A stretch of DNA of 24,345 nt from Acutalibacteraceae bacterium (GTDB lineage Bacteria; Bacillota; Clostridia; Oscillospirales; Acutalibacteraceae), in NCBI GenBank assembly GCA_045605425.1, contig JAZUQA010000010.1, positions 1-24,345 on the forward strand, given 5' to 3'. Under the pieces are notes generated by a model, which saw only the letters and a list, made by a program, of their open reading frames with translations, did not search any database and was not told the DNA's origin. Shown piece after piece: positions 5,971 through 23,154 of the stretch (within the stretch, counting starts at the first letter, position 1; every line of letters begins with the position of its first letter). A program made the position numbers and the translations under genes.

Positions 5971-6026
5971 AAAAGTTTGCACTAAAGTACGGTGTGCGGA
6001 AGATAAAATTATGATATTGTTATTAT
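5971..6026 (+). promoter_or_regulatory. Box A: conserved 28-nt element AAAAGTTTGCACTAAAGTACGGTGTGCG (5971-5998) plus -10 region (TGATATTGT / TATTAT 6021-6026)
   Basis: The 28-mer is identical to 12055-12082 and 17178-17205. The 22-nt distance from the box end to the second -10 hexamer is the same in all three copies. It lies upstream of the gene at 6089. Confidence 0.7.
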
Positions 6027-6088: not shown

Positions 6089-8239
6089 ATGAAATTTTTC
6101 AAAAAACCGTTAGCTGTTTTGCTGACACTTGCAATGGTTATCGGTATCTTTGCGGCAGTTGGTGTTAACACCTCTGCGGCAGAACCGGGACTTTGGGTAG
6201 GCGGTGTTGAGATGAACGATGGCGACTACCTTGCAAACGGTGCAACCGCAACCACAACAACCGAGCCTTCGGGCGGCTATGCTTATTTTAAAGACGGCGT
6301 GCTTACTCTCAACAACTATGTGTATGAGGGCGCCGGCGTTCCTCAAACTAACGGTCATGTGACATGGGCTGAGTTGATCAGTTATAAGATACCGCTGACA
6401 CTCAATCTTAAGGGCGATAATAAGCTTATTTTCGCTCCTGATTCAGAAGAAATCTCCACTTGCTATGCTGTCAGCAGTTACGATGCATATGACAGTAACC
6501 TTACGGTTGAAGGAGACGGCAAGCTGAGTACAAATGCTAGAAGGATACTTTATTCAGACGTATCTGATATAACTGTCAACGGCGGCATAATTGAAGGCAC
6601 TATATACGCGCTGAATAAAAACATTACTATCAATGATGGTTATATTATAGGTATTATATATGCAAACGGCAGAATTGTAATCAACGGCGGTACAGTTTAT
6701 GGTGGAGATATCTCTTCATACAATGCTATTACTATCAACGGCGGTAATATTCTCGCTGTAAACCGCACTGAATATGATGATGATACAGATAGATATGCAA
6801 TACAGGTTGAAGATGAAGAACCTGCTGATTCTATCACTTTCGCTCCCTCACTTGTAATCAAGGCTTCAACAGAGCCTTACGGCGAGCTTGTTGATTACGT
6901 AGCAGAAAATCATAAGGATTACGATATGATAGTAATCGGCGATATTCACTTCTGTGATGTCGCACTTGTTGAAGGTACAGAGGCTGACTGCGAAAACGAC
7001 GGCTACAAGCCATACTACGAGTGCGAGTGCGGCAAGTGCTATCTTGACGAAAACTGCGAAGAAGAGATTGCAGACATTAACGAATGGAAGTCGGGCGACG
7101 GTTTAATCCCCGCACTCAATCACCCCGAAAGAACAGACACTGTTGTAACAGAGGCCACCTGTAGCAAGGAAGGCGTTATTGAAACAACCTGCGATATCTG
7201 CGGTGACGTTATTGCCACAACTGCTATTGAAAAGCTTCCTCACGCTGAAACTATCGACGTGCCCACAACAAAGCCCACCTGCACGGATGCAGGCATTATC
7301 GAAACCTTCTGCACAGAGTGCGGCGAAAAGACAGCTACAAAGCCCGTTGAGTCCACAGGACACGACGAAGGAATCTGGAAGGTCGATTTTGAAGCAACAG
7401 CAGAGCACGACGGTCAGATGACACGTTACTGCACAAAGTGTAATGCAGTGCTTGAAACCAAGACATTTGAGAAGCACACACATACAGAGGGCTATACAAA
7501 GACAATCCCCGCAACCTGCACACAGGATGGCGAAAAGGCTACATTCTGCGCTGAATGCGGCACATGCTACAAAACAGAAGTAATCGAAAAGACAGGTCAC
7601 GGTGAAACAGTTGAAACAGTTTCCGTTAAGCCCACCTGCACACAGGCAGGCGAAAATGTCAAGTACTGTAAGGATTGCGGCGTTGCAGTTGAAACAGTGG
7701 TTGTTGAAGCAACAGACCATGCATGGAGTGGTTACAGCACAAATGCTAACGGCTCACACTCCAAAACCTGCTACAACTGCGGTGTTGAGGAAAAAGAAAA
7801 CTGCACATACACAGCAACTTCAACTGCATCAACCTGCCTTGAAAGCGGCTACACAAAGCACGAGTGCGACGTTTGCGGTCACAGCTACATTGACAGCGAA
7901 ACTCCGGCTCTCGGTCACAAGTGGGGTAAGTGGACAGACGACGCTAACGGTACAACTCACACAAGAGTATGTGATGCTTGCGGCGAAAAAGAAACTCACG
8001 ACCACGAGTGGGGTGAGTGGATATATAACGAGGACGGTACTTTCACAGAAAACGGCACCAAGACAAGAGCTTGTGCAATCTGCGGTGCTGAAGAAACTGA
8101 TACAGCTCACCACACATCCGATATCTGCAGATTCTTCTATCCCATAATCTGCTTTGTTGGTAACATTGTTCACAAGATTCTTTATACCCTTACACTTGAT
8201 TGGCTCTTCCCCGAAATTACAATCAAACCCGAGTTTTAA
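6089..8239 (+). CDS. Secreted/cell-surface protein: signal peptide, beta-helix-like N-terminal domain, ~10 Cys3-His repeat units, C-terminal hydrophobic tail
   Basis: RBS AAAGGAGA. Signal peptide MKFFKKPLAVLLTLAMVIGIFAAVGVNTSA/AEP. The segment from residues ~150-230 is rich in 'I.INGG.I' repeats. From ~6950 to 8110 there are repeats of the form H-x(10-13)-C-x4-G-x4-C-x2-CG, for example HAETIDVPTTKPTCTDAGIIETFCTECGEKTATKPVESTG. The tail is ...ICRFFYPIICFVGNIVHKILYTLTLDWLF. Confidence 0.8.
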   Translation: MKFFKKPLAVLLTLAMVIGIFAAVGVNTSAAEPGLWVGGVEMNDGDYLANGATATTTTEPSGGYAYFKDGVLTLNNYVYEGAGVPQTNGHVTWAELISYKIPLTLNLKGDNKLIFAPDSEEISTCYAVSSYDAYDSNLTVEGDGKLSTNARRILYSDVSDITVNGGIIEGTIYALNKNITINDGYIIGIIYANGRIVINGGTVYGGDISSYNAITINGGNILAVNRTEYDDDTDRYAIQVEDEEPADSITFAPSLVIKASTEPYGELVDYVAENHKDYDMIVIGDIHFCDVALVEGTEADCENDGYKPYYECECGKCYLDENCEEEIADINEWKSGDGLIPALNHPERTDTVVTEATCSKEGVIETTCDICGDVIATTAIEKLPHAETIDVPTTKPTCTDAGIIETFCTECGEKTATKPVESTGHDEGIWKVDFEATAEHDGQMTRYCTKCNAVLETKTFEKHTHTEGYTKTIPATCTQDGEKATFCAECGTCYKTEVIEKTGHGETVETVSVKPTCTQAGENVKYCKDCGVAVETVVVEATDHAWSGYSTNANGSHSKTCYNCGVEEKENCTYTATSTASTCLESGYTKHECDVCGHSYIDSETPALGHKWGKWTDDANGTTHTRVCDACGEKETHDHEWGEWIYNEDGTFTENGTKTRACAICGAEETDTAHHTSDICRFFYPIICFVGNIVHKILYTLTLDWLFPEITIKPEF

Positions 8240-8258
8240 TTTAACAGCATAACCCCAA

Positions 8259-8286
8259 GGCGGCGGAGAAATCCGCCGTCTTTTTG
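8259..8286 (+). terminator. Intrinsic terminator GGCGGCGGA-gaaa-TCCGCCGTC followed by T5
   Basis: 9-bp GC-rich stem with one G-U pair, a GNRA-type loop and a T-tract, 20 nt after the stop at 8239. The identical hairpin recurs at 12004-12031. Confidence 0.85.
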
Positions 8287-8425
8287 TGAAAGGTTCAAGT
8301 GTTTCTCTGGAACAGGTCTCTTACCAATTGACCGGGTATTGATTATTATAAACTTTTTGTCAATTGTGGATTTTTAACTTTTTTTATGATATATTTGTAA
8401 TCGGTATAAGAAAGGAGGCGTTAAT

Positions 8426-10087
8426 TTGGTCAGAACAAAGTACAAAACCGTTATTTATTTAACCGGCGCACTTGTTTTGTCTATGTTCGGTATTGTTTAT
8501 AACGGTATAGATTTCCCGCTTTCCGATTCTTATATGAAAAATACATTTACTCTTATTCCTCATCTTATTTTTATTACATTGCAGGTTGGTTGGGTTATAT
8601 CTCTCCAACGCCGCATTATTAACAAGCGAATACGCATTTACCTGATTGCTGTCGGTTTGCTTATGGCGTTCTGGTTAACGGTGCGCACCTGTAAGTGGTT
8701 TTTTGTTTCCGATATGGAGGTTTTGTGCCGCTATTTGTGGTATGCGTTTTATATTCCTATGGTTCTTATTCCTCTTATAGGTGTGTTTATTACAACGTAT
8801 ATCGGTAAATCCGACAGCTATAAAATGCCAAAATGGCTCAATTTGTTTTTTATTCCTGCCGCAGCTCTTCTTGTACTGATTTTCACAAATGATTTTCACA
8901 ATCTCGTTTTTGAATTTCCGCACGGAATTGAGTTTTTTAATGACGATTATACCTACGGTGTCGGTTTTTATATCACTGCGTTCTGGTTTATTGCTCTCGG
9001 CTTCTATTTTGTTACAATGCTCATTATTAAAAGCCGTGTGCCCGGCAGCAAGACAGTTCAGACCCTGCCCTTGGTAATAATGGCCTGCGCCGTTGTTTTC
9101 TGGCTTCTTTATTCATCGAAAATTATCAATGTTGACCTTACCGCTGTTGACTGTCTTATTATTACTCTGCTTCTTGAAAGTGCGATACAAAGCGGACTTA
9201 TACGCTCAAATACGGGCTATAACGAGCTTTTTGAGATTTCAACTGTTGCCGCACAGGTTGTTGACAGAAATTATCAGACCTGTTACATATCTGCTTATGC
9301 CGATGATTATCCTGAGGATGTAATGAAAAGTGCAGCCGAGAAGGCTGTCGACCTTGGCAAAACAATACTTCACAGTAAGCCTGTTTCGGGCGGATATTTC
9401 CTTTGGCAGGATGATGTAAAGCAGATAAAAAGCCTTATGAAAACGCTTGAAGAAACTCAGGAAAGATTAAGCGAAAACAACTTTCTTTTAAGAGCTGAAA
9501 TTGAAATCAAGGAGCAAAAGGCACGCTTTGATGAAAAAAACCGCCTGTATGACCGTATTGCACAGGATGTTGCAATGCAGCTGTCATTGGCGGATGACTT
9601 GATTGCACAGGCTGAAAAAAATCCGGAGAGCGCTAACAAAGCCTTGGCGCAGGTTTGTGTAATCAGCGCATACATAAAGCGCAGAAGTAACCTTCTTTTA
9701 CTCGGGGAGGAAAACAACTTTATTTCAGCAGGCGAGCTTGAATTTTGTCTGCATGAATCGCTTGATAATCTTCGTTTGCTCGGTGTTTTTACATCGGTTA
9801 ACAGCAGCTGTAACGGCTTAGTCAGCGTTGAAAATGCCGTTGCGGTGTACGATTTGTTTGAACAGATGGTTGAATGTATAATTCACGCTGTAAATGCGTT
9901 TATGGTTAATATAAAGAGCAGCGACGGTGTTATCAGCCTTTCACTTCAGGCGGGTGTTGATGAAGACGCTGATCTTTCGGGCTTAACTAATCTTCAAATT
10001 AACGGTGGTAATGTCAGTGTTGATATTGACTGTAACGACATTACGGTAGATATTCTTCTGCCTGCAGGGGGTGAAGAATATGCTTGA
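8426..10087 (+). CDS. Polytopic (7-8 TM) sensor-kinase-like protein, apparently a pseudo-kinase (no phosphoacceptor His, no G1/G2 ATP-lid boxes)
   Basis: RBS AAGGAGG (8412-8418) with a TTG start at 8426. The N-terminal ~260 aa contain 7-8 hydrophobic helices, like the HisKA_7TM-type N-terminal region. A coiled-coil segment EQKARFDEKNRLYDRIAQDVAMQL aligns by eye with the H-box of the next gene (KIRIHSELGQAL), with Tyr in place of His. The C-terminus has a GHKL-like layout but no DxGxG or GxGL motifs. Confidence 0.65.
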   Translation: MVRTKYKTVIYLTGALVLSMFGIVYNGIDFPLSDSYMKNTFTLIPHLIFITLQVGWVISLQRRIINKRIRIYLIAVGLLMAFWLTVRTCKWFFVSDMEVLCRYLWYAFYIPMVLIPLIGVFITTYIGKSDSYKMPKWLNLFFIPAAALLVLIFTNDFHNLVFEFPHGIEFFNDDYTYGVGFYITAFWFIALGFYFVTMLIIKSRVPGSKTVQTLPLVIMACAVVFWLLYSSKIINVDLTAVDCLIITLLLESAIQSGLIRSNTGYNELFEISTVAAQVVDRNYQTCYISAYADDYPEDVMKSAAEKAVDLGKTILHSKPVSGGYFLWQDDVKQIKSLMKTLEETQERLSENNFLLRAEIEIKEQKARFDEKNRLYDRIAQDVAMQLSLADDLIAQAEKNPESANKALAQVCVISAYIKRRSNLLLLGEENNFISAGELEFCLHESLDNLRLLGVFTSVNSSCNGLVSVENAVAVYDLFEQMVECIIHAVNAFMVNIKSSDGVISLSLQAGVDEDADLSGLTNLQINGGNVSVDIDCNDITVDILLPAGGEEYA

Positions 10088-11360
10088 TTTATATAGCCTT
10101 GCTATGGTGCCAAGAGCGCTGTTTATGACGGTTTTGTTTTTACTTTCAACTTTTAATGTATGCTGTCTGCCGAATGTTTTCAGGCGTGGGTATAAGCTGA
10201 TAACCAAGCTGCTGACGGTTGTTTTTATTGTGTTCAGCTTTTCATTTTGTGTTATTCTGACTACCGGGATATACGCCTTGCTTGATGGGAAAGAAATTCC
10301 GCAGTTAAGTCTGAAATTCGGAAGTAATGCGGAATATGTTCTGTTTTTTATGCTTGTGAACAGTGTTTTCCTTGTTCTTATTGTTGTCGGCGAGTACAGA
10401 TATATTAGAAACAGCGTTTCTACATTGTCAATTAAAGAAAGCTTTGACCATCTGCCGACAGGTCTTTGTTTTTCAAAAGCAAACGGTACGGTTCAGCTTG
10501 TTAATCACAAGATGAATGAATTAAGCCATATTATAACCGGTGAAGAGCTGCAGAACGCCAACCGATTCTGGAGAATTCTGTGCAACGGTTCGGTTTTAGC
10601 TGATGTTCAGCGTTTATCCAAGGGAAAGCAACCGGAATTCAGACTCAGCGACGGTACAATTTATACCTTTGCCAGAGAAAAGGTTGAAAATGTTTTCCAG
10701 CTGACAGCCACCGATACAACCGGACTTCATAAGCTCAAAAACCGCTTGCAGAGCAATAACGAAGAGCTTGAGGAAATGAACGCAAGGCTTCGTGCTTACG
10801 GTGAAACGGTTGATGAAACGACAAGGGCACGAGAAAGACTTGAAACAAAAATACGAATTCACAGCGAGCTTGGTCAGGCTTTGCTTGCAACACGCCATTG
10901 CCTTCATCAGCCCGATGCGGATTTGCAGCCTGTACTGAATGCGTGGAAAAGAAATATTGCCGTTCTTCGTACGGAGGCTGAACCCTCGCAGAATACGGAT
11001 TTGCTTCAGTCGCTTATTGCGGTTGCGGAGTCTGCCGGCGTAAGCGTTGAGATTAACGGCAGCATTCCGCAGGATGAAACTGTGGCTTCCGTTATGACCT
11101 CTGCGGCTACCGAAGCACTTACCAACGCCGTGCGTCACGCTCAGGCAACAACACTTTTTGTTGAGTTTACCGAGTCGGATGAGTTTTATTTTGCCCGCTA
11201 TACCAACGATGGCAATGTTCCCGATAAAGAAATTAATGAGGGCGGCGGTCTTGGCTCGCTGCGGAATAAAATTGAACGCTGCGGCGGCGAAATGCATATT
11301 CAGTCTGTTCCGAAGTATGTTCTCGATATATCTTTACCAAAAGAGGTGAGCGGGTTTTGA
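10080..11360 (+). CDS. Membrane sensor histidine kinase, HisKA_3 / NarX-LiaS-DesK class
   Basis: ATG 10080 lies 7 nt after GGGGGTG. GTG 10071 is an alternative start, and either start overlaps the upstream stop at 10085-10087. The protein has 3-4 N-terminal TM helices and a PAS-like segment (FDHLPTGLCFSKANGTVQLVNHKMNEL). The H-box is RIHSELGQALL, the N-box TEALTNAVRHA, the G1-like box YTNDGNV and the G2 box GGGLGSLRNKIE. Confidence 0.85.
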   Translation: MLDLYSLAMVPRALFMTVLFLLSTFNVCCLPNVFRRGYKLITKLLTVVFIVFSFSFCVILTTGIYALLDGKEIPQLSLKFGSNAEYVLFFMLVNSVFLVLIVVGEYRYIRNSVSTLSIKESFDHLPTGLCFSKANGTVQLVNHKMNELSHIITGEELQNANRFWRILCNGSVLADVQRLSKGKQPEFRLSDGTIYTFAREKVENVFQLTATDTTGLHKLKNRLQSNNEELEEMNARLRAYGETVDETTRARERLETKIRIHSELGQALLATRHCLHQPDADLQPVLNAWKRNIAVLRTEAEPSQNTDLLQSLIAVAESAGVSVEINGSIPQDETVASVMTSAATEALTNAVRHAQATTLFVEFTESDEFYFARYTNDGNVPDKEINEGGGLGSLRNKIERCGGEMHIQSVPKYVLDISLPKEVSGF

Positions 11361-11992
11361 TTAAGGTTCTGATAGTAGAAGACGACCCTATGGCACGTAA
11401 GCTCCTTGAAATTTACGTCAACGACAGCTTTGATTACATTCTTTCTCATTCAATAGAAAGCGCAGCAATGGCAGAGCTCTATTGTATGAAAAACGATGTT
11501 GATCTGATTCTTATGGACGTCTGCACGGCAATGGACGCAAACGGACTTGACGCTGCTGCAAAAATCAAGAAGAGCTTTCCGAAAATTAAAATAGTTATTG
11601 TAACAAGTCAGCCGGAGTTCAGCTATATTGACAGAGCACGTGCGGCAGGAGTTGAAAGCTTCTGGTATAAGAGTGCCTCTGCTGAGGAAATAATTGAGGT
11701 TATGGACAGAACAATGGCAGGGGAGTCCGTTTACCCGGACACTACGCCTACACTCAGGCTCGGTTCAGCAATGAATATTGACCTTACCGAAAAGGAGCTT
11801 GAGGTTCTGCGTGAGGTTATAAACGGAGAATCCGATGCGGGAATAGCCGAAAAGCTGCATATGTCTCTGCGTACGGTAAAGGGACATATACAGAGTATGC
11901 GTGACAAAACAGGCTTCCGTAACCGCACAGAGCTTGCCGTAAGAACACGGGAAAGCGGAATTATAATCAACGACCATAAAAAAGAACAATAA
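11357..11992 (+). CDS. Response regulator, NarL/FixJ (LuxR-type HTH) family
   Basis: The TTG start overlaps the kinase stop (TTGA, 11357-11360). Receiver motifs are present: VLIVEDDP, DLILMDV (Asp54), IVIVTS and WYKS. The C-terminal LTEKELEVLREVINGESDAGIAEKLHMSLRTVKGHIQSMRDK is a LuxR/GerE HTH. Confidence 0.9.
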   Translation: MIKVLIVEDDPMARKLLEIYVNDSFDYILSHSIESAAMAELYCMKNDVDLILMDVCTAMDANGLDAAAKIKKSFPKIKIVIVTSQPEFSYIDRARAAGVESFWYKSASAEEIIEVMDRTMAGESVYPDTTPTLRLGSAMNIDLTEKELEVLREVINGESDAGIAEKLHMSLRTVKGHIQSMRDKTGFRNRTELAVRTRESGIIINDHKKEQ

Positions 11993-12003
11993 CTTGCATT
12001 TGT

Positions 12004-12031
12004 GGCGGCGGAGAAATCCGCCGTCTTTTTT
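12004..12031 (+). terminator. Intrinsic terminator GGCGGCGGA-gaaa-TCCGCCGTC followed by T6 (duplicate of 8259-8286)
   Basis: Hairpin sequence identical to 8259-8280, 12 nt after the response-regulator stop. Confidence 0.85.
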
Positions 12032-12054: not shown

Positions 12055-12110
12055 AAAAGTTTGCACTAAAGTACGGTGTGCGAAGGAAAACAAATTGATA
12101 TAATTATAAT
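12055..12110 (+). promoter_or_regulatory. Box B: the 28-nt element (12055-12082) plus an extended -10 TGaTATAAT (12096-12104) overlapping a second TATAAT (12105-12110)
   Basis: Exact 28-mer. The downstream 19-mer TTGATATAATTATAATGTA is identical to copy C. It lies upstream of the gene at 12139. Confidence 0.75.
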
Positions 12111-12138: not shown

Positions 12139-13806
12139 ATGGCATTTCGCAGGAAAGAGTTTTTGCAGGATGATTTCGGTGAAGAACATATTTCCTCAAG
12201 CGAGCACGTTATTTCCGACGAATATTCTTATCTCGATGAAACATCGGAATATGATGAACGCTTTTTTCATTCTGATGAATATAACCAGGAGTTTACTGCA
12301 GGCTTAAAAGAAAAAGAGCAGGAAGACGAGGGTGAGGAAGAGGCTGAAACTGAAGAAAAGCAAAAAATCAGCTTTCTCAACAAGACAGCCGATGCTGTTA
12401 AGAATATCGGAATTGTTCTTGCTGTCGGCGCAACGGTTGCCGTCAGCCCCATAGGTGACAGGCTGACGCAGTCCTTTACCGAGCCTGTGACTGAACACGA
12501 GCATATTATTTCTTCGGAATGGACATTACATAATGCCGCAAGCTGTTCTGCGGCGGGTGAGGAAGTGTTACTGTGTACCCTTTGCGGAGAAACACTTGAA
12601 ACAAGAATAGTTCCGCAGCTTGAACACGAGGCAGGGGACTGGACAGTCAGCGTTAATGCGGACTGTGTTAACAGCGGTATTGAAATTATACCGTGTATTC
12701 ATTGTAATGAGGCACTCGAAGAAAGAGAAATCCCTGCCGGTGAGCACGGCTCAAGTGACTGGATAATTGATACGGAGAAAACCTGTACCGTTGACGGAGT
12801 AAGGCATAAGGAATGCTCGGGCTGCGGTATGGAGCTTGAACGGGAAATAATCCCCGCAGCACACACCGTTGTAAAGGATCCGGCTGTTAAGGCAACCTGT
12901 AAAAAGGACGGCAAAACAGAGGGCTCACATTGCTCGGTTTGTAACAAGGTTCTGAAAGCACAGACTGTTGTTAAGGGCACGCACGTTGAGGTTGAAGACC
13001 CTGCTGTTCAGGCAACCTGCCAGAAGGACGGTCTTACAAAGGGTAGCCACTGCTCGGTGTGTAACAAGGTGCTTGTTGAACAAAAGGCTGTAAAAGGCAC
13101 TCACGTTGAAGTTGTGGATGCTGCAATAGCGACAACCTGCACAACCGACGGTAAAACACAGGGTAGTCATTGCTCAGCCTGCGGTAAGGTAATAAAAGCG
13201 CAGACCGTTATTTCCAAAACGGGACATAAAACTGTTAAGGATGCGGCTGTAGCGGCGACCTGTACAACAGAAGGTAAAACAGAAGGCAGCCATTGCTCGG
13301 TTTGTAACACGGTTATTACCGCACAGAAAATAATTCCCAAAACAAACCACAATGAAGTAATTGACCCAGCCGTAGCGGCAACTTGTTCCAAGACAGGTCT
13401 TACTGAAGGCAGTCATTGCTCCGTATGCCGTGAAATAATCATTGCGCAGAGTACCGTTGCAAAGAAAGCACATACCCCCGTAACAGATGCGGCTGTTGAA
13501 GCAAGCTGTACATCAGCAGGTAAAACACAGGGCAGCCACTGCTCAGCTTGCGGCACTGTTATAACGGCTCAGCAGACTATTCCTGCATTGGGACATACCA
13601 GAGTAGTAAGAGAAGGCAGTGAACCCACCTGCGACAGTGACGGATATACTGACTATATCTTCTGCCAGACTTGTAAGGAGATTATTCAGGAGCAGGAGGT
13701 TATACCTAAGCTCGGCCATCAATGGAAGGGTGAGCCGTTTACCGGTCCTAACGGTGCTCAGGTACTTACCTGTGAACGATGTGGCGAATCCAAAGAAGAT
13801 TTGTAA
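12139..13806 (+). CDS. Type II membrane-anchored protein: acidic N-terminal tail, one TM helix, 11 tandem Cys3-His repeat units
   Basis: RBS GAAGGTG. Residues 1-85 are very acidic (...KEKEQEDEGEEEAETEEKQK). The TM helix is IGIVLAVGATVAVSPIG. Repeats follow, for example HVEVEDPAVQATCQKDGLTKGSHCSVCNKVLVEQKAVKGT, with the pattern H-x11-C-x9-HC-x2-C. Confidence 0.8.
   Translation: MAFRRKEFLQDDFGEEHISSSEHVISDEYSYLDETSEYDERFFHSDEYNQEFTAGLKEKEQEDEGEEEAETEEKQKISFLNKTADAVKNIGIVLAVGATVAVSPIGDRLTQSFTEPVTEHEHIISSEWTLHNAASCSAAGEEVLLCTLCGETLETRIVPQLEHEAGDWTVSVNADCVNSGIEIIPCIHCNEALEEREIPAGEHGSSDWIIDTEKTCTVDGVRHKECSGCGMELEREIIPAAHTVVKDPAVKATCKKDGKTEGSHCSVCNKVLKAQTVVKGTHVEVEDPAVQATCQKDGLTKGSHCSVCNKVLVEQKAVKGTHVEVVDAAIATTCTTDGKTQGSHCSACGKVIKAQTVISKTGHKTVKDAAVAATCTTEGKTEGSHCSVCNTVITAQKIIPKTNHNEVIDPAVAATCSKTGLTEGSHCSVCREIIIAQSTVAKKAHTPVTDAAVEASCTSAGKTQGSHCSACGTVITAQQTIPALGHTRVVREGSEPTCDSDGYTDYIFCQTCKEIIQEQEVIPKLGHQWKGEPFTGPNGAQVLTCERCGESKEDL
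12862..13593 (+). repeat. Six in-frame tandem coding repeats of 120-123 nt (units 4-9 of the Cys3-His protein)
   Basis: Units of 40, 40, 41, 41, 41 and 41 codons begin with His codons at 12862, 12982, 13102, 13225, 13348 and 13471. DNA strings such as GGTAGCCACTGCTCGGTGTGTAACAAGGT recur. Confidence 0.85.
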
Positions 13807-13846: not shown

Positions 13847-14764
13847 ATGAGTAAAAAGAATAGTGCAAAAAAGGTTATCGGTTTAGTGTTTTCTGTTGTT
13901 GTTATTGCGGTTGTAGCTGCAGTTTTCAATATTTCACGTTTTACGTTCCTGCCTGAAGGCTTAAGGGCAAGTGTTAGCGGCTTTGTTGATACATATTTTT
14001 CAAATGCATCTGCTGTAATCAGCCTTAAATCAGTCGGCGCAGCGTTGCTTTCACTTGTTGCTGCCTTTGTTGTCGGCTATGTTGTTAAGTTTATTATAAA
14101 CGCAATTAAACTGAAGAATAACCGTTCACAGACGCTTCTTCAGCTTTTCGGCAAGTTCCTGGTTTATGCAATTTATATTGCCGGTATCGTTGTTGCTCTT
14201 GGCTGCTTCGGGATTGATACAACAGCAATTCTTGTCGGCGCAGGTGTGGTAGGTATTGTTGTCGGCTTTGGCGCACAGTCACTTGTTGAGGATATTATTA
14301 CAGGCTTGTTTATCGTTCTTGAAGGTGAGTTTGTTATCGGCGATATTATTACTATTGACGGATTTCGTGGTGAGGTTAAATCAATCGGTCTGCGTACAGT
14401 CAGCATTGAAGACCTTGGCGGCAATGTCCGTATTATCAACAACAGCGAAATCGGCTCTCTTGTTAACCTTTCCGATAACGTATCGGTTGCTGTTGTTAAT
14501 GTGCCTGTAAGCTATGATGATGAGCTTAAGGTTGCTGAGGCGGCAGTACAGGAGGCTCTTTCAGAACTTCCGAGCGAATATCCCGATATTTTCAAGGAAG
14601 CTCCGGTTTATAAGGGTGTTGATACGCTTGCCGAAACACATATTGAGCTTATGGTTGTTGCAAACGTTGCTGAAGAGAATATCTATAACGCACGCAGGAT
14701 TATGCAGCGTGAAATCCGCTATTCCTGTGAAAAGGCAAAACTGAATAAACCGTGTAACGATTGA
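13847..14764 (+). CDS. Small-conductance mechanosensitive channel (MscS family)
   Basis: Three N-terminal TM helices are followed by the MscS signature region ...GVVGIVVGFGAQSLVEDIITGLFIVLEGEFVIGDIITIDGFRGEVKSIGLRTVSIEDLGGNVRIINNSEI.... Confidence 0.85.
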   Translation: MSKKNSAKKVIGLVFSVVVIAVVAAVFNISRFTFLPEGLRASVSGFVDTYFSNASAVISLKSVGAALLSLVAAFVVGYVVKFIINAIKLKNNRSQTLLQLFGKFLVYAIYIAGIVVALGCFGIDTTAILVGAGVVGIVVGFGAQSLVEDIITGLFIVLEGEFVIGDIITIDGFRGEVKSIGLRTVSIEDLGGNVRIINNSEIGSLVNLSDNVSVAVVNVPVSYDDELKVAEAAVQEALSELPSEYPDIFKEAPVYKGVDTLAETHIELMVVANVAEENIYNARRIMQREIRYSCEKAKLNKPCND

Positions 14765-14787
14765 TTAAATTAATGGAGCGATATCTT

Positions 14788-15291
14788 ATGGCTAAAATAT
14801 ATAATGAGCATGAAATCAGAAAAGATTACCATATGCTTACAAAAAAGCTTATTGAAAATAATATTTCAATCACCACAATGGAAAGCTGCACATCGGGTCA
14901 GCTTGCCTCGTTGATAAGCGATACCGAAGGTGCATCGGGAATAATGAAGGGTGCATTTGTTACATACAGCAACGAGGCGAAAATCAAACAGGGCGTACCG
15001 GAAGAAATTATTGATAAATATTCCGTGTATTCTTCTCAGACCGCAAAAGCAATGGCGCAGGCGTGCAGTAAAACCTATAATGCCGATATTGGTATCGGAG
15101 TAACCGGTTCAATGGGTAATGTTGACCCGGCAAATGCGGCGGCTTCCGTGCCCGGTCAGGTCTGGTTTGCTTTCTGTATTAACGGCGAGATGTTCGAGTA
15201 TTATATTGAACTTGAACCTCAACCGACACGCTTTGAATATAAGATGGCTGTTGCCAAGGAAATAGTTGACGAGCTAAATAAGCTCATATAA
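14788..15291 (+). CDS. pncC: CinA C-terminal-domain / PncC-family nicotinamide-nucleotide amidohydrolase
   Basis: GGAG lies 9 nt upstream of ATG 14788; the ORF track starts at TTG 14761. The protein contains ...ISITTMESCTSGQLASLISDTEGAS..FKGAFVTYSNEAK...IGIGVTGSMG..., the standalone CinA/PncC (COG1546) pattern, and is about 167 aa. Confidence 0.75.
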   Translation: MAKIYNEHEIRKDYHMLTKKLIENNISITTMESCTSGQLASLISDTEGASGIMKGAFVTYSNEAKIKQGVPEEIIDKYSVYSSQTAKAMAQACSKTYNADIGIGVTGSMGNVDPANAAASVPGQVWFAFCINGEMFEYYIELEPQPTRFEYKMAVAKEIVDELNKLI

Positions 15292-15312: not shown

Positions 15313-15654
15313 ATGTTAAAACCGGTTACAAAGGATTATTCGGACCGCTCAACTTTAAAAGAATTTGAATTTGAATTTTATTGTGATTGCTGTAAAAAAG
15401 CAATTAAAACTCCGATAATTGAATTTAACTCCGGGTTTAAAGGAAAGTTTTTAAGCAAGGAAGTTAAAAAGGCGAGAGACATTATTTATGCAGCAGACCA
15501 CAGCAGTGCTTTTGAAAGAGCAAATATTGAAGCTTTATATGAGCTGAACAGATGTGAAATCTGCGGAGATATGGTTTGTGATGACTGTACTGTTTACGGT
15601 GAAAATTTAAACGGAGGATTTTGCTGCAAAAAGTGTGCAAAGAGTGAAGGATAG
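15313..15654 (+). CDS. Small Cys-rich hypothetical protein (probable zinc-binding)
   Basis: RBS GAGGAG lies 6 nt upstream of ATG 15313. It contains YCDCCKK and a C-terminal CEICGDMVCDDC...GGFCCKKC cluster. I recognise no family. Confidence 0.55.
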   Translation: MLKPVTKDYSDRSTLKEFEFEFYCDCCKKAIKTPIIEFNSGFKGKFLSKEVKKARDIIYAADHSSAFERANIEALYELNRCEICGDMVCDDCTVYGENLNGGFCCKKCAKSEG

Positions 15655-15658
15655 AAAT

Positions 15659-17125
15659 ATGAATAAATTTAAAAAACTTACAATTCTGCATTCTAACGAT
15701 TTGCATGGTGATTTCCTTGCAGAAAATGTAAATGATGACCTTATCGGCGGAGTCAGTATGCTTTCGGGATATGTCAATAAGGTCAGAAATGAAGTACCGA
15801 ATACGCTTTACTGCATTGCCGGTGATATGTTCAGAGGCTCTGTAATTGACTCCGAATTCAAGGGTACGAGCACAATAGAAATAATGAACGCTATTGCGCC
15901 CGATGTAGTTACGCTTGGCAACCACGAAACAGATTACGGAATAGCTCATCTTCTCTTCCTTGAAAAATGTGCTAAGTTTCCGATAATAAATGCAAATCTC
16001 TATATTAAATCCAATTCTGTCCGCCTTTTTAAGCCGCATAAAGTGCTTGAGGTGGACGGAATGAAGATTCTGTTTATCGGCATTATCACCGAAAGTGTTA
16101 TGAAGCAGGCGAGAAACGAGGGTCTTGTTGGCAGTTTTCTTGATGTACACGAGGCTGCCGAAGAAGTCGGCAGAATATGCGATGCATATAACGCAACTGA
16201 TATTGACCTGACTGTTCTGCTCACGCATATAGGCTTTGAAGAGGATAAACAGCTTGCCGCTATGCTTGACCCTGCGTGGGGTGTTGATATTATTATCGGC
16301 GGTCACTCCCATACTTTTATAGAAAACCCTGAAATTGTCAACAATATTGCCGTTGTACAGGCGGGAATAGGTACGGACCAGATAGGAAGATTTGACCTGA
16401 CAATTGATACGGATAATAACTGCCTGAATGATTTTGAATGGCGGTATGTAAAAGTCTGCCCTGAAAACTGCCCGAATGATGAGGCTATTGATAAAATTCT
16501 TGCATCTTATAAGAACGTAACTGATGTCAAGTATAGCCGTGTTATAACCCGTCTTAAAAGAAAGCTTACTCATCCCGGACGATATATGGAAACTGAACTT
16601 GGCGATTTGTTCTGCGATATTCTTGCCGAAAGTCTTGCTCTTGATGTGATGCTGCTCGCATCGGGTGCTATCAGAAATGATTCACTCGGACCTGTTGTTC
16701 AGGTTTCTGACCTTGCGGAGTGTTTCCCTTACGACGGGGACGTAAGACTGCTTTATATAACCGGTAAGCAATTAAAAGCAATGTTTACTTATGTGTTCCG
16801 GGACGAAGTATGGCAGGGGGGCGCAAGCGGATTCTTCCAGATTTCAAAACGTCTGCGTGTCAAGTATGACGTAAAGCAAAGAAAAATTTCAGATTTTACT
16901 TTTGACGGTGAACCGATTGAGGATGATAGGCTTTATAAAGTCGGTATGCAGCAGTTTCATTACAGAAGCTTTCAAAAATATTTCAATTTCCCGCTGAGCG
17001 AAATTGAGGAAAACCATCCGACCAGGGTGGTTGCAACTTCAGCGCGTGTTGTGATTGAGGAGCGTTTGTCTGAATGTCAGAACATTGATAAGGAAATTGA
17101 CGGAAGAATTATTATAAAAGAATAA
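15659..17125 (+). CDS. Cytoplasmic bifunctional metallophosphatase / 5'-nucleotidase-family protein (paralogue 1)
   Basis: ATG 15659 gives MNKFKKLTILHSNDLHGD. Motifs are present: GDMFRGS, GNHETDYG, LTHIGFEEDK and GGHSHT. The C-terminal 5'-nucleotidase substrate-binding domain is present. There is no signal peptide. Confidence 0.85.
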   Translation: MNKFKKLTILHSNDLHGDFLAENVNDDLIGGVSMLSGYVNKVRNEVPNTLYCIAGDMFRGSVIDSEFKGTSTIEIMNAIAPDVVTLGNHETDYGIAHLLFLEKCAKFPIINANLYIKSNSVRLFKPHKVLEVDGMKILFIGIITESVMKQARNEGLVGSFLDVHEAAEEVGRICDAYNATDIDLTVLLTHIGFEEDKQLAAMLDPAWGVDIIIGGHSHTFIENPEIVNNIAVVQAGIGTDQIGRFDLTIDTDNNCLNDFEWRYVKVCPENCPNDEAIDKILASYKNVTDVKYSRVITRLKRKLTHPGRYMETELGDLFCDILAESLALDVMLLASGAIRNDSLGPVVQVSDLAECFPYDGDVRLLYITGKQLKAMFTYVFRDEVWQGGASGFFQISKRLRVKYDVKQRKISDFTFDGEPIEDDRLYKVGMQQFHYRSFQKYFNFPLSEIEENHPTRVVATSARVVIEERLSECQNIDKEIDGRIIIKE

Positions 17126-17177: not shown

Positions 17178-17233
17178 AAAAGTTTGCACTAAAGTACGGT
17201 GTGCGGGGGATTTTAAGTTGATATAATTATAAT
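17178..17233 (+). promoter_or_regulatory. Box C: the 28-nt element (17178-17205) plus an extended -10 TGaTATAAT (17219-17227) overlapping TATAAT (17228-17233)
   Basis: Exact 28-mer with the same 22-nt spacing to TATAAT as copies A and B. It lies upstream of the gene at 17265. Confidence 0.75.
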
Positions 17234-17264: not shown

Positions 17265-18728
17265 ATGAAAAATTTAAAAAAGCTTACAATTCTTCACTCC
17301 AATGACCTTCACGGAGATTTCCTTGCGGAAAATATTGACGACAATCTTGTCGGCGGCGTTTCAATGCTTTCCGGTTATGTGGATAAGGTAAGAAACGAAG
17401 AGAAAAACACAATTTACTGTATCGCAGGCGATATGTTCAGAGGCTCTGTTATCGACTCAGAGTATAAAGGCATTTCAACAATCGAGATTATGAATATGCT
17501 TTCACCTGATGTTGTAACAATCGGTAACCATGAAACAGATTACGGCATTGCACACCTTCTCTTCATCGAAAAGTGCGCTAAATTCCCGATTATCAATGCT
17601 AATTTACATATCAAAACAAACGGCGCAAGACTTTTTAAGCCCCATTATATAGCTGAAATTGACGGTATGAAGGTGCTGTTTATCGGTCTTATCACTGAAG
17701 AAGTTCTTTCACAGACCAAGAATGATGGCATTATCGGTACTTTCGTTGACATTGATGAGGCTGCTGCTGAGGTCGGTAAAATATGTAACTCATATAATGC
17801 AACAGATATTGATTTTACGGTTCTTCTTACACACATCGGCTTTGAAGAGGATAAGAAGCTTGCTGCTTTGTTAGACCCTGCTTGGGGTGTTGATATTATT
17901 GTCGGCGGTCACTCTCATACATTCATTGATGAGCCTGCTGTTGTCAACGATATCGTTATTGTTCAGGCCGGTACAGGTACTGACCAGATAGGTCGATTTG
18001 ATATTATGGTTGATACAGACAACAACTGTATTGACAGCTACACATGGAAGAGTGTTCCGATAAATGCCGAGCATTGTCCCAAAGACGAGGCTTTGGAGAA
18101 TATTCTTAAGCATTATAAAGAGAAGACTGACGAAAAATACGGCAGACTTGTTACACGCTTCAAGAAAAAGCTTACTCACCCTGAGAGAACGAGGGAAACT
18201 GCACTTGGCGGTCTGTTCTCCGATATTATGCGTGAGAGTCTGGGCCTTGATATTATGCTTCTCGGCTCGGGTAGTGTCAGAAGCACTCAGCTTGGTCCGA
18301 TTGTCCTTTTCGCCGACCTTTGCGAATGCTTCCCGTATGATGATGCTTGCTATATGATCAAGGTTACGGGTGAGCAGTTCAAAAGGATGATAAAGCATAT
18401 GGTCCGTGATGGCGTATGGCAGGGTGAACATTGTGAGTTCTATCAGCTTTCAACGGGCTTACGTGTTGAGTATGACAGAGCAACACACACCTTTACACGC
18501 TTTGATATTAACGGCGAGCCTATGGATGACGAGAAGATTTACAAAGTAGGACTCCAGCAGTTCCATTACAATAATCTTGATGACTTCTTCAATATTCCCT
18601 TTGACGAAATTAAAGCTAACGGTGCTCCTGTTATGGTTTCAACATCATGCCGCAGTATATTTGATGAATACCTTTCAACTCATCAGAATCTTGACCGTGA
18701 TATTACAGGCAGACTTGTTATCAACTGA
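17265..18728 (+). CDS. Cytoplasmic bifunctional metallophosphatase / 5'-nucleotidase-family protein (paralogue 2)
   Basis: RBS AAGGAGA. It starts MKNLKKLTILHSNDLHGD and has the same metallophosphatase motifs as 15659-17125. By eye it is very similar in the N-terminal half and clearly more diverged in the C-terminal half. Confidence 0.85.
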   Translation: MKNLKKLTILHSNDLHGDFLAENIDDNLVGGVSMLSGYVDKVRNEEKNTIYCIAGDMFRGSVIDSEYKGISTIEIMNMLSPDVVTIGNHETDYGIAHLLFIEKCAKFPIINANLHIKTNGARLFKPHYIAEIDGMKVLFIGLITEEVLSQTKNDGIIGTFVDIDEAAAEVGKICNSYNATDIDFTVLLTHIGFEEDKKLAALLDPAWGVDIIVGGHSHTFIDEPAVVNDIVIVQAGTGTDQIGRFDIMVDTDNNCIDSYTWKSVPINAEHCPKDEALENILKHYKEKTDEKYGRLVTRFKKKLTHPERTRETALGGLFSDIMRESLGLDIMLLGSGSVRSTQLGPIVLFADLCECFPYDDACYMIKVTGEQFKRMIKHMVRDGVWQGEHCEFYQLSTGLRVEYDRATHTFTRFDINGEPMDDEKIYKVGLQQFHYNNLDDFFNIPFDEIKANGAPVMVSTSCRSIFDEYLSTHQNLDRDITGRLVIN

Positions 18729-19027: not shown

Positions 19028-19040
19028 GGAGGTAATGCCA

Positions 19041-20126
19041 ATGAAAAAATTAACAGCCGTTATACTTGCTCTGATTATGATGCTTACATTTGCAGCCTGC
19101 GGCGGCAAGGATAAGGCTGAAACAACAACCGAAGCTCCTTCGCAGACCGAAGAATCAAAAACAAAAGATAACAGCTCTGCAAACGACAAAGGCGGAAATA
19201 AAGAGGATGATGGCGGCGATTTGCTGATGACTCTTTATATTGACAGTGCTTCTGAAGATTATCAGAGCCTGAAGGGCAAAATCGAAACCATAAACACGGG
19301 CATAGACCCTCAGACTTCAGCCGGCTGTTTCAGGTTTATTTCGCCAAAAAACGGTGTTAAGGTCAGACTTGAAGCAATTATGTGGTCACCGATTGTTGAT
19401 GAGTTTGAGGTAACCGAAACAATATTCGAAATCTCAACCGATAAAGGCAGGATTTACGAATTTGACTGCTACGTAACCGAAACAATTCCCGATTACAGAA
19501 TTGTTGCCGAGTACGGTGAAATGAACGCCGACTATTATCTGGCTATGGATGGCTATGAGGTTGTTACAAAGCTGCTGATGGTTGACGAAGGCTTTGCCCC
19601 CGAAGAAATAACCGAAGATTCACCCTTCTATAACCTCTGCGTTGCCCGTGCGACATCGGATGTGTTTTACAATGACAGGCATGTGAAATATGAACCTCCC
19701 GTTGTGTGGGACACTATTGCTTACGCAGTAACGCTCAATGAGTTCAAAATGAACGGCACGGAAGACTATGTCAATATGATTGGTCTTTCCGAATGGGAGG
19801 CGGATGCTTATTTCAGTACCCTTTATCCCACACTTATTGAAAGTGATACGGAGCTTCCCGAAAACGGCAACGTTGTGGCAGCCCACTTCAGCACCGGTGA
19901 AAAATATCTTGTTCAGCCGTATGCTTTTGAACGCTTCAGTACCAACGAATTCTACGGCGTAGAAGATAACGGCGACGGAACGTATTCCGTTAAAATCAGG
20001 ATTGATGATTACAGATATGAGGGCTATGAGGAATTTGGTCTTGCGGTAATCGTTAAACCCGATGCAAATAATCCTTTCGGCTACGTAATCACTGAAGTTG
20101 TTGATTGCGATTTGCCTGTAGGATAA
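19041..20126 (+). CDS. Hypothetical lipoprotein
   Basis: RBS GAGGAGG (19026-19032) favours ATG 19041. MKKLTAVILALIMMLTFAACGG has a lipobox-like FAAC, followed by a Ser/Thr/Glu/Lys-rich linker. I recognise no family in the remainder. Confidence 0.65.
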   Translation: MKKLTAVILALIMMLTFAACGGKDKAETTTEAPSQTEESKTKDNSSANDKGGNKEDDGGDLLMTLYIDSASEDYQSLKGKIETINTGIDPQTSAGCFRFISPKNGVKVRLEAIMWSPIVDEFEVTETIFEISTDKGRIYEFDCYVTETIPDYRIVAEYGEMNADYYLAMDGYEVVTKLLMVDEGFAPEEITEDSPFYNLCVARATSDVFYNDRHVKYEPPVVWDTIAYAVTLNEFKMNGTEDYVNMIGLSEWEADAYFSTLYPTLIESDTELPENGNVVAAHFSTGEKYLVQPYAFERFSTNEFYGVEDNGDGTYSVKIRIDDYRYEGYEEFGLAVIVKPDANNPFGYVITEVVDCDLPVG

Positions 20127-20167
20127 AAAGTAATTAATAAATGAATTTCTGAAAGGAGAAATTTTAT

Positions 20168-21523
20168 ATGGGACTTATTAAAGCAGGAATAGGAGCACTC
20201 GGCGGTGTACTTGCTGACCAGTGGAAGGAATTTTTCTACTGTGATTCGCTTGAAAACGACGTGCTTATGGTTAAAGGACAGAAGCGAGTAGGCGGACGTT
20301 CTTCCAACACAAGAGGCAGTGATAACATTATCTCCAACGGCTCGGGTATTGCTGTTGCTGACGGTCAGTGTATGATTATCGTCGAGCAAGGTAAGGTTGT
20401 TGAGGTTTGTGCAGAACCTGGTGAATTTACCTATGATTCTTCAACAGAGCCTTCAATCTTCTCCGGTAAGCTTGGCGACACAATCAAGGAAACCTTCAAG
20501 CAGGTCGGTAAGAGATTTACATACGGCGGTGATACCGGCAAGGACCAGAGAGTTTATTATTTCAACACAAAGGAAATTCTCGATAACAAGTTCGGCACAC
20601 CCAATCCCTTTATGTTTGAGGTTGCCAACAAAAGACTTGGTATGTACCGTTCCGTACAGGTAAGATGTAACGGTGTATATTCCTACAGAATTACAGACCC
20701 GCTTCTTTTCTATACAAAGATTGCAGGTAATGTGGGCGATGAATACAGAAGAGAAGAAATTGACAATCAGCTCAAAACAGAGTTTATTTCGGCTCTTCAG
20801 CCTGCATTCGCAATGCTTACAGAGCTTGAGCTTCGCCCTGCACAGATTCCTGCGCACACAACTGAGCTCAAGGATGCTCTCAATAAGGCTCTTGCTGTTG
20901 ACTGGACAGACCGCAGAGGTATCTCCGTTGAATCCATTGCTCTTAATCCGATTACTCTTACTCCCGAAGATATGCAGAAGATTAATCAGATGGAAGATGC
21001 TGCAACAATAGGCTCAAATCCGTTTATGATGGCAGGCAGAATGACAGATGCACAGGCAAACGCAATGGAGGCTGCTGCCAACAATCCCAACGGAGCAATG
21101 ATGGGCTTTATGGGAATGAATATGGCAATGGGCGCCAACGGCGGCTTCAACGCTGCACAGATGTATCAGGCAGGCATGCAGCAACAGCAGCAAATGGCAC
21201 AACAGCAGGCTGCACCCGCACCTGCACCTGCACAGGCAGCTCCTGCAGCACCTGCAACGGGATGGAAATGTGCTTGCGGTGCAACCGTAAGCGGTAACTT
21301 CTGCACAGAGTGCGGAGCAAAGAAGCCTGCAGAAGAAGGCTGGACCTGTTCATGCGGTGCAGTGAATAAAGGTAAGTTCTGCCCCAACTGTGGCGGCAAA
21401 AAGCCTGCAGGCGCACCTCTTTACCAATGTGACAAGTGCGGCTGGAAGCCAGAAGACCCCCACAATCCTCCGAAGTTCTGCCCCGAATGCGGTGACATCT
21501 TCGACGAAAGCGACGCAAAATAA
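20168..21523 (+). CDS. SPFH-domain protein of the YdjI / COG4260 type with a low-complexity linker and three C-terminal zinc ribbons
   Basis: RBS AAGGAG. The N-terminus MGLIKAGIGALGGVLADQWKEFFYCDSL...NIISNGSGIAVADGQCMIIVEQGKVVEVCAEPGEF is the characteristic start of COG4260 SPFH proteins. The linker reads ...GMQQQQQMAQQQAAPAPAPAQAAPAAPA. The ribbons are WKCACGATVSGNFCTECG, WTCSCGAVNKGKFCPNCG and YQCDKCGW...KFCPECG. Confidence 0.8.
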   Translation: MGLIKAGIGALGGVLADQWKEFFYCDSLENDVLMVKGQKRVGGRSSNTRGSDNIISNGSGIAVADGQCMIIVEQGKVVEVCAEPGEFTYDSSTEPSIFSGKLGDTIKETFKQVGKRFTYGGDTGKDQRVYYFNTKEILDNKFGTPNPFMFEVANKRLGMYRSVQVRCNGVYSYRITDPLLFYTKIAGNVGDEYRREEIDNQLKTEFISALQPAFAMLTELELRPAQIPAHTTELKDALNKALAVDWTDRRGISVESIALNPITLTPEDMQKINQMEDAATIGSNPFMMAGRMTDAQANAMEAAANNPNGAMMGFMGMNMAMGANGGFNAAQMYQAGMQQQQQMAQQQAAPAPAPAQAAPAAPATGWKCACGATVSGNFCTECGAKKPAEEGWTCSCGAVNKGKFCPNCGGKKPAGAPLYQCDKCGWKPEDPHNPPKFCPECGDIFDESDAK

Positions 21524-21567
21524 TTTAACAAAAAATATAATTATAATTTTTAAAGGAGATTTTTATT

Positions 21568-22599: not shown

Positions 22600-22618
22600 T
22601 TAATGCTTTGATATTTCT

Positions 22619-23152: not shown

Positions 23153-23154
23153 CC

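Follow-up and report, generated by a model that had tools for sequence, protein, structure and literature searches.

A tyrosine-bearing, kinase-like membrane protein encoded with a DesK-like sensor kinase and a NarL-type regulator: a putative three-component sensory module of gut Clostridia

Histidine kinases are usually taken as self-contained homodimers, and the known cases in which an active kinase is under the control of an inactive kinase-like protein are few, each of them being a single system from one pathogen or model organism. In this work, we analysed a 24,345-nucleotide (nt) stretch of Acutalibacteraceae DNA (contig JAZUQA010000010.1, hereafter the window), in which three consecutive open reading frames (ORFs) of the + strand within positions 8426-11992, named here g1, g2, and g3, encode a polytopic membrane protein with a kinase-like C-terminus, a sensor kinase, and a response regulator, respectively (Table 1). 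This locus is 98-99% identical to metagenome-assembled genomes from animal guts labelled Acutalibacteraceae (L006-L008).

Within the HisKA_3/NarL class, the closest described case is UhpC-UhpB-UhpA of Escherichia coli, in which adjacent genes encode a non-catalytic polytopic receptor, a HisKA_3-class kinase, and a NarL-class regulator; UhpC is, however, a transporter paralogue and not a kinase-fold protein. The comparison drawn in the first-pass annotation of the window was with LiaF-LiaS-LiaR, composed of an inhibitory membrane accessory protein, a HisKA_3-type kinase, and a NarL-type regulator of envelope-related genes. This likeness holds for the three-gene set of accessory protein, HisKA_3 kinase, and NarL regulator, but it goes no further than analogy: LiaF, unlike g1, is not kinase-like, a Pfam scan of g1 at E<=1 shows no LiaF-type domain, and gene order and accessory role need not carry over.

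Accessory pseudokinases as such have already been characterised elsewhere. CovS and CovR of Streptococcus pyogenes are not of the HisKA_3/NarL class, and neither are the Fas proteins, which are of the AgrC/LytTR type; DivL of Caulobacter crescentus is of the HisKA type, is not encoded beside its partners, and has a more intact catalytic and ATP-binding (CA) domain than g1, while RetS of Pseudomonas aeruginosa retains catalytic-type domains. In S. pyogenes, RocA, a polytopic protein with six transmembrane (TM) segments and an inactive tail resembling the dimerisation and histidine phosphotransfer (DHp) and CA domains, binds the sensor kinase CovS and modulates regulator phosphorylation (PMC7028121). 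Like g1 as read here, RocA is a polytopic, kinase-like, inactive protein of the Firmicutes, but rocA lies outside the covRS operon and RocA keeps a dispensable His246; this likeness is one of description and not of direct comparison, and no Streptococcus protein is among the g1 matches listed. The FasB-FasC-FasA system of the same species encodes, in one operon, two kinase-like membrane proteins that heterodimerise, FasC being the proposed pseudokinase, with an essential sensing half (PMC12675982). It resembles g1-g2-g3 in that two kinase-like proteins and one regulator share a single operon, whereas FasC keeps an acceptor His (H246) that it lends to its partner and g1 has no acceptor His. DivL carries Tyr in place of the acceptor His and acts as a non-catalytic regulator of another kinase (PMC4211667, summarised in PMC12963549). 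This acceptor Tyr is shared by g1, whose model is matched by the DivL structure 4q20 in Foldseek (E 3e-5), but DivL differs in being alphaproteobacterial, in having multiple PAS domains, and in controlling CckA. In P. aeruginosa, one kinase-family protein, RetS, controls another, GacS, through DHp-level heteromers that disrupt the homodimer (PMC8498467); unlike g1, RetS is a hybrid kinase encoded apart from gacS, and it comes from a Gram-negative organism. Finally, PsmA is a further non-catalytic kinase-fold protein that steers a kinase (PMC12963549). What appears to be undescribed is the association of a HisKA_7TM domain with a Tyr-bearing dead DHp-CA part, its operonic pairing with a DesK-like kinase and a NarL regulator, and the promoter box presented below: the literature on HisKA_7TM yielded only census and review papers naming it as a sensor domain, and that on pseudokinases with HisKA_3 or three-component NarL systems yielded nothing on the g1 family. 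The first-pass annotation knew of no characterisation of the arrangement, in agreement with which no publication on the g1 family was found, although the general concept has the precedents above; only the family and its arrangement appear unstudied.

The protein encoded by g1, whose TTG start codon lies 8 nt past the motif AAGGAGG (8412-8418), is with little doubt a non-catalytic protein of kinase fold. In a Pfam scan at E<=1, its residues 51-251 match HisKA_7TM (PF16927) with 40.1 bits for a gathering threshold of 28.6, accompanied by two coiled-coil-type matches below threshold, while none of HisKA, HisKA_3, and HATPase_c is hit; an NCBIfam scan gave no match, and phmmer and hmmsearch runs of g1 and its family profiles against PDB sequences returned chance matches only. 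The kinase relationship emerges from structure prediction, the DHp hairpin and the alpha/beta CA fold being present in the predicted model only. More precisely, the AlphaFold2 (AF2) model, built from a 19-homologue alignment with a predicted local distance difference test (pLDDT) score of 73, comprises membrane helices up to residue 255, a PAS-like part (263-330), two helices (353-398 and 400-429), and an alpha/beta domain (432-545). When this model is compared with the PDB by Foldseek, nearly all of the top 50 matches are histidine kinases or kinase-derived proteins, among which WalK, YF1, ThkA, DesK, the phosphotransferase ChpT, and DivL (E 1e-8 to 1e-5), and the alignments to PAS-containing kinases are 360-480 columns long. 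Eight hydrophobic segments, the HisKA_7TM match, the model, and the Foldseek matches thereby bear out the large polytopic domain, PAS-like linker, and kinase-shaped C-terminus read from the sequence in the first-pass annotation. Polar residues conserved across the family are found in the membrane domain (R63, R87, K90, R102, N155, D156, H158, and E251), and N262, Y265, D280, G323, and W327 are conserved in or near the PAS-like part.

The residues needed for catalysis are missing throughout the family. In an alignment of 143 sequences, made of g1 and 142 full-length representatives sharing 27-46% identity with g1, the acceptor column contains Tyr in 135 sequences, Phe in five, and Leu in three, and His in none, the Tyr being usually followed by Asp. 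The placing of Tyr375 of g1 opposite His261 of g2 had been proposed from an alignment by eye, with codons that do read TAT and CAC, and it is reproduced by BLASTP and by two profile-profile alignments with hhalign. An alternative register, laying 'EKNRLYDRIAQDV' on 'ERxRIARELHDxV' with Ala379 at the His position, was rejected on three grounds: Tyr375 is the residue aligned with the His by BLASTP and in both hhalign runs, the Tyr-Asp pair is conserved, and one outlier, P0349, has 'RLHD' there; either register leaves g1 without an acceptor His. This outlier (L089, 395-2713) is a 772-amino-acid (aa) member with two tandem HisKA_7TM domains and the motif 'EKNRLHD', hence His at the Tyr site, and its CA-like domain is equally degenerate. 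At the level of sequence, its His supports the positional equivalence of the family Tyr and the H-box His. Across the family, there is no invariant cytoplasmic His, the sole His-rich cytoplasmic column being position 324 in the PAS-like part. The N, G1, and G2 boxes, already reported as absent from g1 by the first-pass annotation, are missing family-wide from the CA-like domain, a DxGxG motif being present in 3 of the 143 sequences and a G2-like motif in 8; the lid columns are mostly gaps, the lid segment being deleted in most members. In the better of the two hhalign alignments, E483 of g1 stands opposite the N-box Glu. The N-box Asn faces residue 487, which is His in this window and D, E, P, or S in the family, and a five-residue deletion comes next. 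In the same line, HisKA_7TM is matched by 80 of 83 diverse family representatives, none of which has a Pfam HATPase_c or HisKA domain. A conserved His placed by profile alignment together with intact ATP-lid motifs was looked for in g1 and not seen.

Other positions are, by contrast with the lost boxes, strongly kept. K418 and R419, part of the family pattern 'AYxKRRxNL', are found in 142 of the 143 aligned sequences and are invariant in the 83 diverse members, and the CA-like domain conserves E437, L438, C441, E444, S445, Y475, D476, F478, E479, and E483. Against orthologues that are 98-99% identical, the dN/dS ratio (non-synonymous to synonymous substitution rates) of g1 is 0.06-0.09 and the DHp-like segment shows no non-synonymous change; the degeneracy of g1 is therefore not decay, and a decaying pseudogene is ruled out by this ratio together with the family-wide conservation. 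The family is also large: 928 g1 homologues were found in a database clustered at 90% (the top 120 all of about 553 aa), a 50%-identity library gave 3065 clusters at E<=1e-3, of which 1581 reached E<=1e-30 (the best 150 being almost all of about 550 aa), and 348 matches were obtained among species-representative genomes. Ruminococcus, Blautia, and Roseburia are among the genera with homologues.

The term paralogue, used for g1 in the first-pass annotation, has to be restricted. A kinase fold and a distant homology to g2 are found, since hhalign with the 83-sequence diverse g1 profile aligns 166 columns, from the end of the PAS into the CA domain, with a probability of 70.9% (E 3.8e-5). A close relationship is not: with alignments of close homologues, the probability between the g1 and g2 families is 16.7%, direct BLASTP of g1 against g2 is not significant, and hhalign of sub-regions from these close-homologue alignments (cytoplasmic part, DHp+CA, or CA alone, in local and global modes) gives weak matches or nothing.

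The second gene is 426 codons long from the ATG at 10080, an alternative GTG at 10071 giving 429 aa. Its product is, as judged from the following alignments, a divergent, DesK-like member of the HisKA_3 class. Pfam returned nothing significant for g2, the HisKA_3 model giving no match and HATPase_c staying below threshold, and the best NCBIfam match was UhpB (E 6e-8, over the C-terminal 85 residues). Searched against the PDB, the g2 family profile hits the CA domains of DevS and DosT and the DHp and CA domains of DesK at E 1e-11 to 1e-9 (1.4e-9 for DesK, with an alignment spanning both domains), and VraS is also among the matches, the four covering E 1e-11 to 3e-6. The AF2 model (pLDDT 81.5) contains three membrane helices, a PAS domain, a long DHp helix, and a CA domain; Foldseek retrieves DesK and YF1, and the CA model superposes on the ATP-bound DesK CA domain 3ehg with a TM-score of 0.77 and a root-mean-square deviation of 2.7 Å. 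His261 is aligned with the H-box His of DesK ('dlHdtlGqkL', the 'LHDTLGQ' motif). The earlier statement that the second protein has all the boxes is thus right for His261, the N box, and the G2 box but not for the G1 box, which is non-canonical (NDG): N376 stands at the position of the adenine-binding G1 Asp, DesK having DDG, DevS DNG, and DosT DDG. Among distant partner kinases, the G1 box reads NNG or NDG, and the Asn is kept in three of them. This Asn could reflect an altered nucleotide use or a shifted register of the motif.

The third gene encodes a canonical Response_reg (7.4e-15) plus GerE (2.3e-13) protein according to Pfam, which agrees with the NarL-type regulator announced previously, and its full-length NCBIfam matches are of the NarL, MctR, and UvrY types. 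The receiver landmarks E8-D9-D10, D54, T83, and K105 can be read in its sequence, the codon of Asp54 lying at 11516-11518.

The three genes form a stable unit as regards order and spacing. In the window, g1 and g2 overlap by 8 nt (ATGCTTGA, 10080-10087, where the TGA of g1 occupies 10085-10087), and g2 and g3 by the 4 nt TTGA (11357-11360), which contain the g2 stop and the g3 start. These overlaps, which the first-pass annotation took to suggest translational coupling, are exact in their coordinates and recur elsewhere. More precisely, 85 related loci were collected via g1 homologues (46-99% identity), and the order g1-g2-g3 on one strand was found in every one with enough downstream sequence, while the flanking genes differ between loci. 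Five further representatives at about 30% identity were looked up (L086, L087, L089, L090, and L091): L087, L090, and L091 keep the three-gene order, and L086 and L089 end inside the kinase gene. Start and stop codons of homologous loci overlap by 1-8 nt, except at the g2-g3 junctions of L005, L090, and L091. It is very likely that g1, g2, and g3 act in one pathway.

A clue to the division of labour comes from the distant loci. Three of the five encode a partner kinase devoid of hydrophobic segments (L087 7662-8762, L090 7674-8630, and L091 7689-8684); these soluble kinases, of 318-366 aa, begin at the PAS motif KESFDNLPSG and keep the H, N, and G2 boxes, whereas the partner kinases of L086 and L089 have three TM helices, as g2 in this window. 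In L087, L090, and L091, the 7TM pseudokinase is the sole membrane component and is therefore the obvious place for signal input. In addition, L005 carries, on the - strand between the kinase and regulator genes of its module, a gene (7961-8941) for a 326-aa protein in which HisKA_7TM is fused to a GerE/LuxR helix-turn-helix (HTH), i.e. a membrane-bound one-component regulator, and this fusion fits a signal-input role of the 7TM domain. From the soluble partner kinases and the fused 7TM, we infer that g1 is the sensing subunit and that g2 catalyses.

On the output side, the window holds three exact copies of a 27-mer, AAAGTTTGCACTAAAGTACGGTGTGCG, all of them on the + strand, none being expected by chance. 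Its 15-nt core is exactly present in 32 of the 85 related loci, being conserved even where the g1 proteins are only about 50% identical; L001, L003, and L005-L008 are among the many loci that share the box. In the window plus the 85 loci (about 0.8 Mb), 105 matches with at most 2 mismatches were counted, 97 of them on the operon strand, for about 1.6 expected by chance according to our own arithmetic, and most matches lie upstream of an ORF. The general layout is the consensus TtTGCACTAAAGTACaaTGTgc, followed after 17 nt by TAtAAT, the box starting 39 nt before TATAAT in 66 of 99 distinct contexts; when the box is written TTTGCACTAAAGTAC(a/g)ATGTGC, the distance to the -10 further downstream is 24 nt from the end of the 15-nt core and 17 nt from the end of the full box. 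Abutting or overlapping a poor -35, the box has what is, from its sequence context, the layout of an activator site. That it might be a transcribed RNA element was rejected, as Rfam gave no family at gathering score anywhere in the window (1-24345) and the -10 comes only after the box. The box stands most often directly 3' of the regulator gene, and in L003 a variant of the box precedes g1 itself. As for the genes behind it, secreted, Cys-rich, or Flg_new-type surface proteins make up the largest class (35 of 87 target proteins, counted per locus), besides 10 5'-nucleotidase-like phosphoesterases, 10 DUF6935 proteins, lipoproteins, and zinc-ribbon proteins. The box is probably the operator of the g3-type regulator.

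These data lead us to a model in which the sensing and the catalytic functions reside in different subunits that form a heteromer, and which we consider somewhat better than an even prospect. According to this model, g1 would be a catalytically dead, kinase-shaped receptor whose polytopic domain detects a cue associated with the membrane or envelope, and its PAS-like, coiled-coil, and DHp-like parts would contact g2, most plausibly in a hetero-oligomer formed via the DHp helices. By analogy with FasB-FasC or RetS-GacS, the joining would most likely involve DHp-like helices or PAS units. Such a contact would set the kinase/phosphatase balance of g2, which would autophosphorylate on His261 and pass the phosphate to Asp54 of g3, and phosphorylated g3 would then bind the box and activate sigma-A promoters of envelope-related genes, those for secreted surface proteins among them. 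The sensor role of g1, g3 as the binder of the box, and the direction of regulation are those we infer from the comparisons above. Several observations weigh against this model. The physical contact between g1 and g2 is a proposal drawn from genetic linkage and the soluble partner kinases; the confidence of the g1 model is only moderate, given its pLDDT and its 19-sequence alignment; the similarity of g1 to g2 is weak with close homologues, and the CA-like parts alone do not appear to align. Moreover, the G1 Asp is replaced by Asn throughout the g2 family, which casts some doubt on ATP binding, and g2 in this window has its own three TM segments and PAS and could sense alone. Finally, the box is assigned to g3 by position and co-occurrence, and no box stands upstream of g1 in this window.

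Another way to account for the same module is that g1 acts on g3 or its phosphorylated form rather than on g2, as a scaffold, a decoy, a phosphatase co-factor, or a DivL-like reversed sensor feeding back on g2. We regard this as unlikely, though it draws on the fact that the best conserved cytoplasmic residues of g1, Y375-D376 of helix 1 and K418-R419 of helix 2, are located where kinases contact regulators, that 4q20 is among the Foldseek matches, and that DivL binds phosphorylated DivK via its DHp-CA core, as quoted in PMC12963549 from PMC4211667. A role confined to the regulator would nevertheless leave the soluble kinases accompanying g1 unexplained, and the HisKA_3 phosphatase motif DxxxQ is not kept after Tyr375, position 380 being variable. 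The conservation of the Tyr itself, more constrained than a dead site needs and replaced by a His in P0349 as if the site were positionally equivalent to a real acceptor, might also suggest that Tyr375 is phosphorylated, in trans by the g2 CA domain in a heterodimer or by another kinase, and serves as a branch or brake on the phosphorelay. This seems to us very improbable, since eight representatives have Phe or Leu instead and the Tyr of DivL is dispensable for DivL function; besides, we know of no case in which the CA domain of a histidine kinase productively phosphorylates Tyr.

The TM segments and the PAS domain that g2 possesses here would equally suit a self-sufficient sensor, g1 being then a separate, co-expressed 7TM protein, for instance transporter-like or enzymatic, with a structural tail, and its constellation of conserved polar membrane residues (R63 to E251, listed above) could be a catalytic or transport site. 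Such an independence is hard to reconcile with the adjacency and overlapping codons kept down to about 30% identity, with the soluble kinases of some branches, with the DHp-like segment being the most constrained part of g1, or with the signal-input behaviour of the 7TM-LuxR HTH fusion of L005, and we hold it to be improbable. A comparably low credence goes to the proposal that neither g1 nor g2 is a kinase, the Asn in the G1 box abolishing ATP binding, g3 being phosphorylated by acetyl phosphate or another kinase, and g2 being restricted to phosphatase or phosphotransfer activity. N376, which takes the place of the G1 Asp of DesK, DevS, and DosT and is invariant in the close family, the NNG or NDG of distant members, and the sub-threshold HATPase_c score of g2 are in line with this proposal, whereas the invariant His261, the N-box Glu and Asn, and the EGGGLG motif are difficult to explain without nucleotide binding, and the g2 CA model superposes on the ATP-bound 3ehg.

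Going beyond the sensor-subunit and heteromer model, one may tentatively consider, at somewhat less than an even prospect, that the module represents a large unrecognised class of obligate two-subunit sensor kinases of gut Clostridia, made of a 7TM Tyr-pseudokinase and an often soluble DesK-like kinase with Asn in its G1 box, in which only the heteromer would be active, a mixed DHp bundle replacing the homodimer and driving a NarL-type regulator and a surface-protein box. Whatever its mechanism, a three-gene module hard-wired in this way is of interest for its extent, amounting to roughly 1,600 g1 clusters at 50% identity (E<=1e-30). If the heteromer model is true, the family offers a broad natural data set on the choice of DHp partners and on the use of a Tyr-bearing dead H-box, and would show how sensing and catalysis can be divided between two polypeptides. 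Besides, the names seen for the g1 and g2 families in the sources are 'hypothetical protein', and precomputed Pfam annotations mark g1 homologues by the 7TM domain only and leave nearly all g2 homologues unmarked, so that these systems may escape two-component censuses of gut Clostridia. The conserved box is in turn a ready predictor of the regulon, which in these gut commensals is dominated by large secreted Cys-rich/Flg_new-type surface proteins.

Table 1. Coordinates of the g1-g2-g3 genes, their predicted domains and motifs, and the associated promoter boxes and terminator in the window.
Feature	Position	Strand	Description
g1	8426..10087	+	553-aa predicted membrane pseudo-histidine-kinase of the HisKA_7TM family (ORF, Pfam, AF2, Foldseek)
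g1 polytopic membrane domain	8426..9202	+	aa 1-259; 8 hydrophobic segments by hydropathy, AF2 helices 2-255
g1 PAS-like alpha/beta linker	9212..9415	+	aa 263-330; AF2 secondary structure
g1 DHp-like helical hairpin	9521..9712	+	aa 366-429; AF2 helices 353-398 and 400-429; hhalign to the g2 H-box helix
g1 Tyr375 codon (TAT)	9548..9550	+	phospho-acceptor position of g1
g1 signature Y-I-K-R-R-S-N-L	9671..9694	+	DHp helix 2, aa 416-423
g1 degenerate CA-like alpha/beta domain	9716..10063	+	aa 431-546; no N/G1/G2 boxes, short lid
g2	10080..11360	+	426-aa putative DesK-like (HisKA_3-class) sensor kinase: 3 TM segments, PAS, DHp, CA
g2 His261 codon (CAC)	10860..10862	+	predicted phospho-acceptor; invariant in 22 homologues
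g2 N box, Asn349 (EALTNAVRHA)	11124..11126	+	invariant; aligned to the DevS/DesK N box
g2 atypical G1 box, N376-D377-G378	11205..11213	+	N376 and G378 invariant (22 homologues)
g2 G2 box, E-G-G-G-L-G	11238..11255	+	E387, G389, and G390 invariant
g3	11357..11992	+	211-aa NarL/LuxR-type response regulator (receiver domain + GerE); TTG start
Promoter box, copy 1	5972..5998	+	upstream of the gene for a 716-aa Cys-rich secreted protein (6089-8239)
Promoter box, copy 2	12056..12082	+	directly downstream of g3, upstream of the gene for a 555-aa Cys-rich protein (12139-13806)
Promoter box, copy 3	17179..17205	+	upstream of a 5'-nucleotidase-like gene (17265-18728)
Intrinsic terminator after g3	12004..12030	+	identical 27-mer at 8259-8285

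Further observations concern the neighbourhood of the module. The same 27-nt terminator hairpin, GGCGGCGGAGAAATCCGCCGTCTTTTT, is found 3' of both the 716-aa surface-protein gene and g3, and the repetition of both this terminator and the promoter box points to a location of the sensor operon between two duplicated surface-protein cassettes. The 716-aa protein has an N-terminal signal-like hydrophobic segment, and the 555-aa protein an acidic N-terminus; both belong to the largest class of genes behind the box, and their Cys-rich repeats, which recur about every 120 nt and contain CxxC-type motifs, attract Pfam matches that are spurious and repeat-driven. 3' of the second surface-protein gene, a gene for an MscS-type mechanosensitive channel (13847-14764) overlaps a CinA-like gene (14761-15291), and genes for MscS and CinA are neighbours of the module in L005 and L003 as well. 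Two 5'-nucleotidase/metallophosphoesterase-like genes follow in tandem (15635-17125 and 17265-18728), the box standing before the second only. Finally, SPFH/Band-7, DUF4428, and zinc-ribbon proteins are encoded together at positions 19035-24234 of the window. In L005, the module is immediately preceded by a cluster that includes DUF4428, and in L003 a DUF4428 gene is found on its downstream side.

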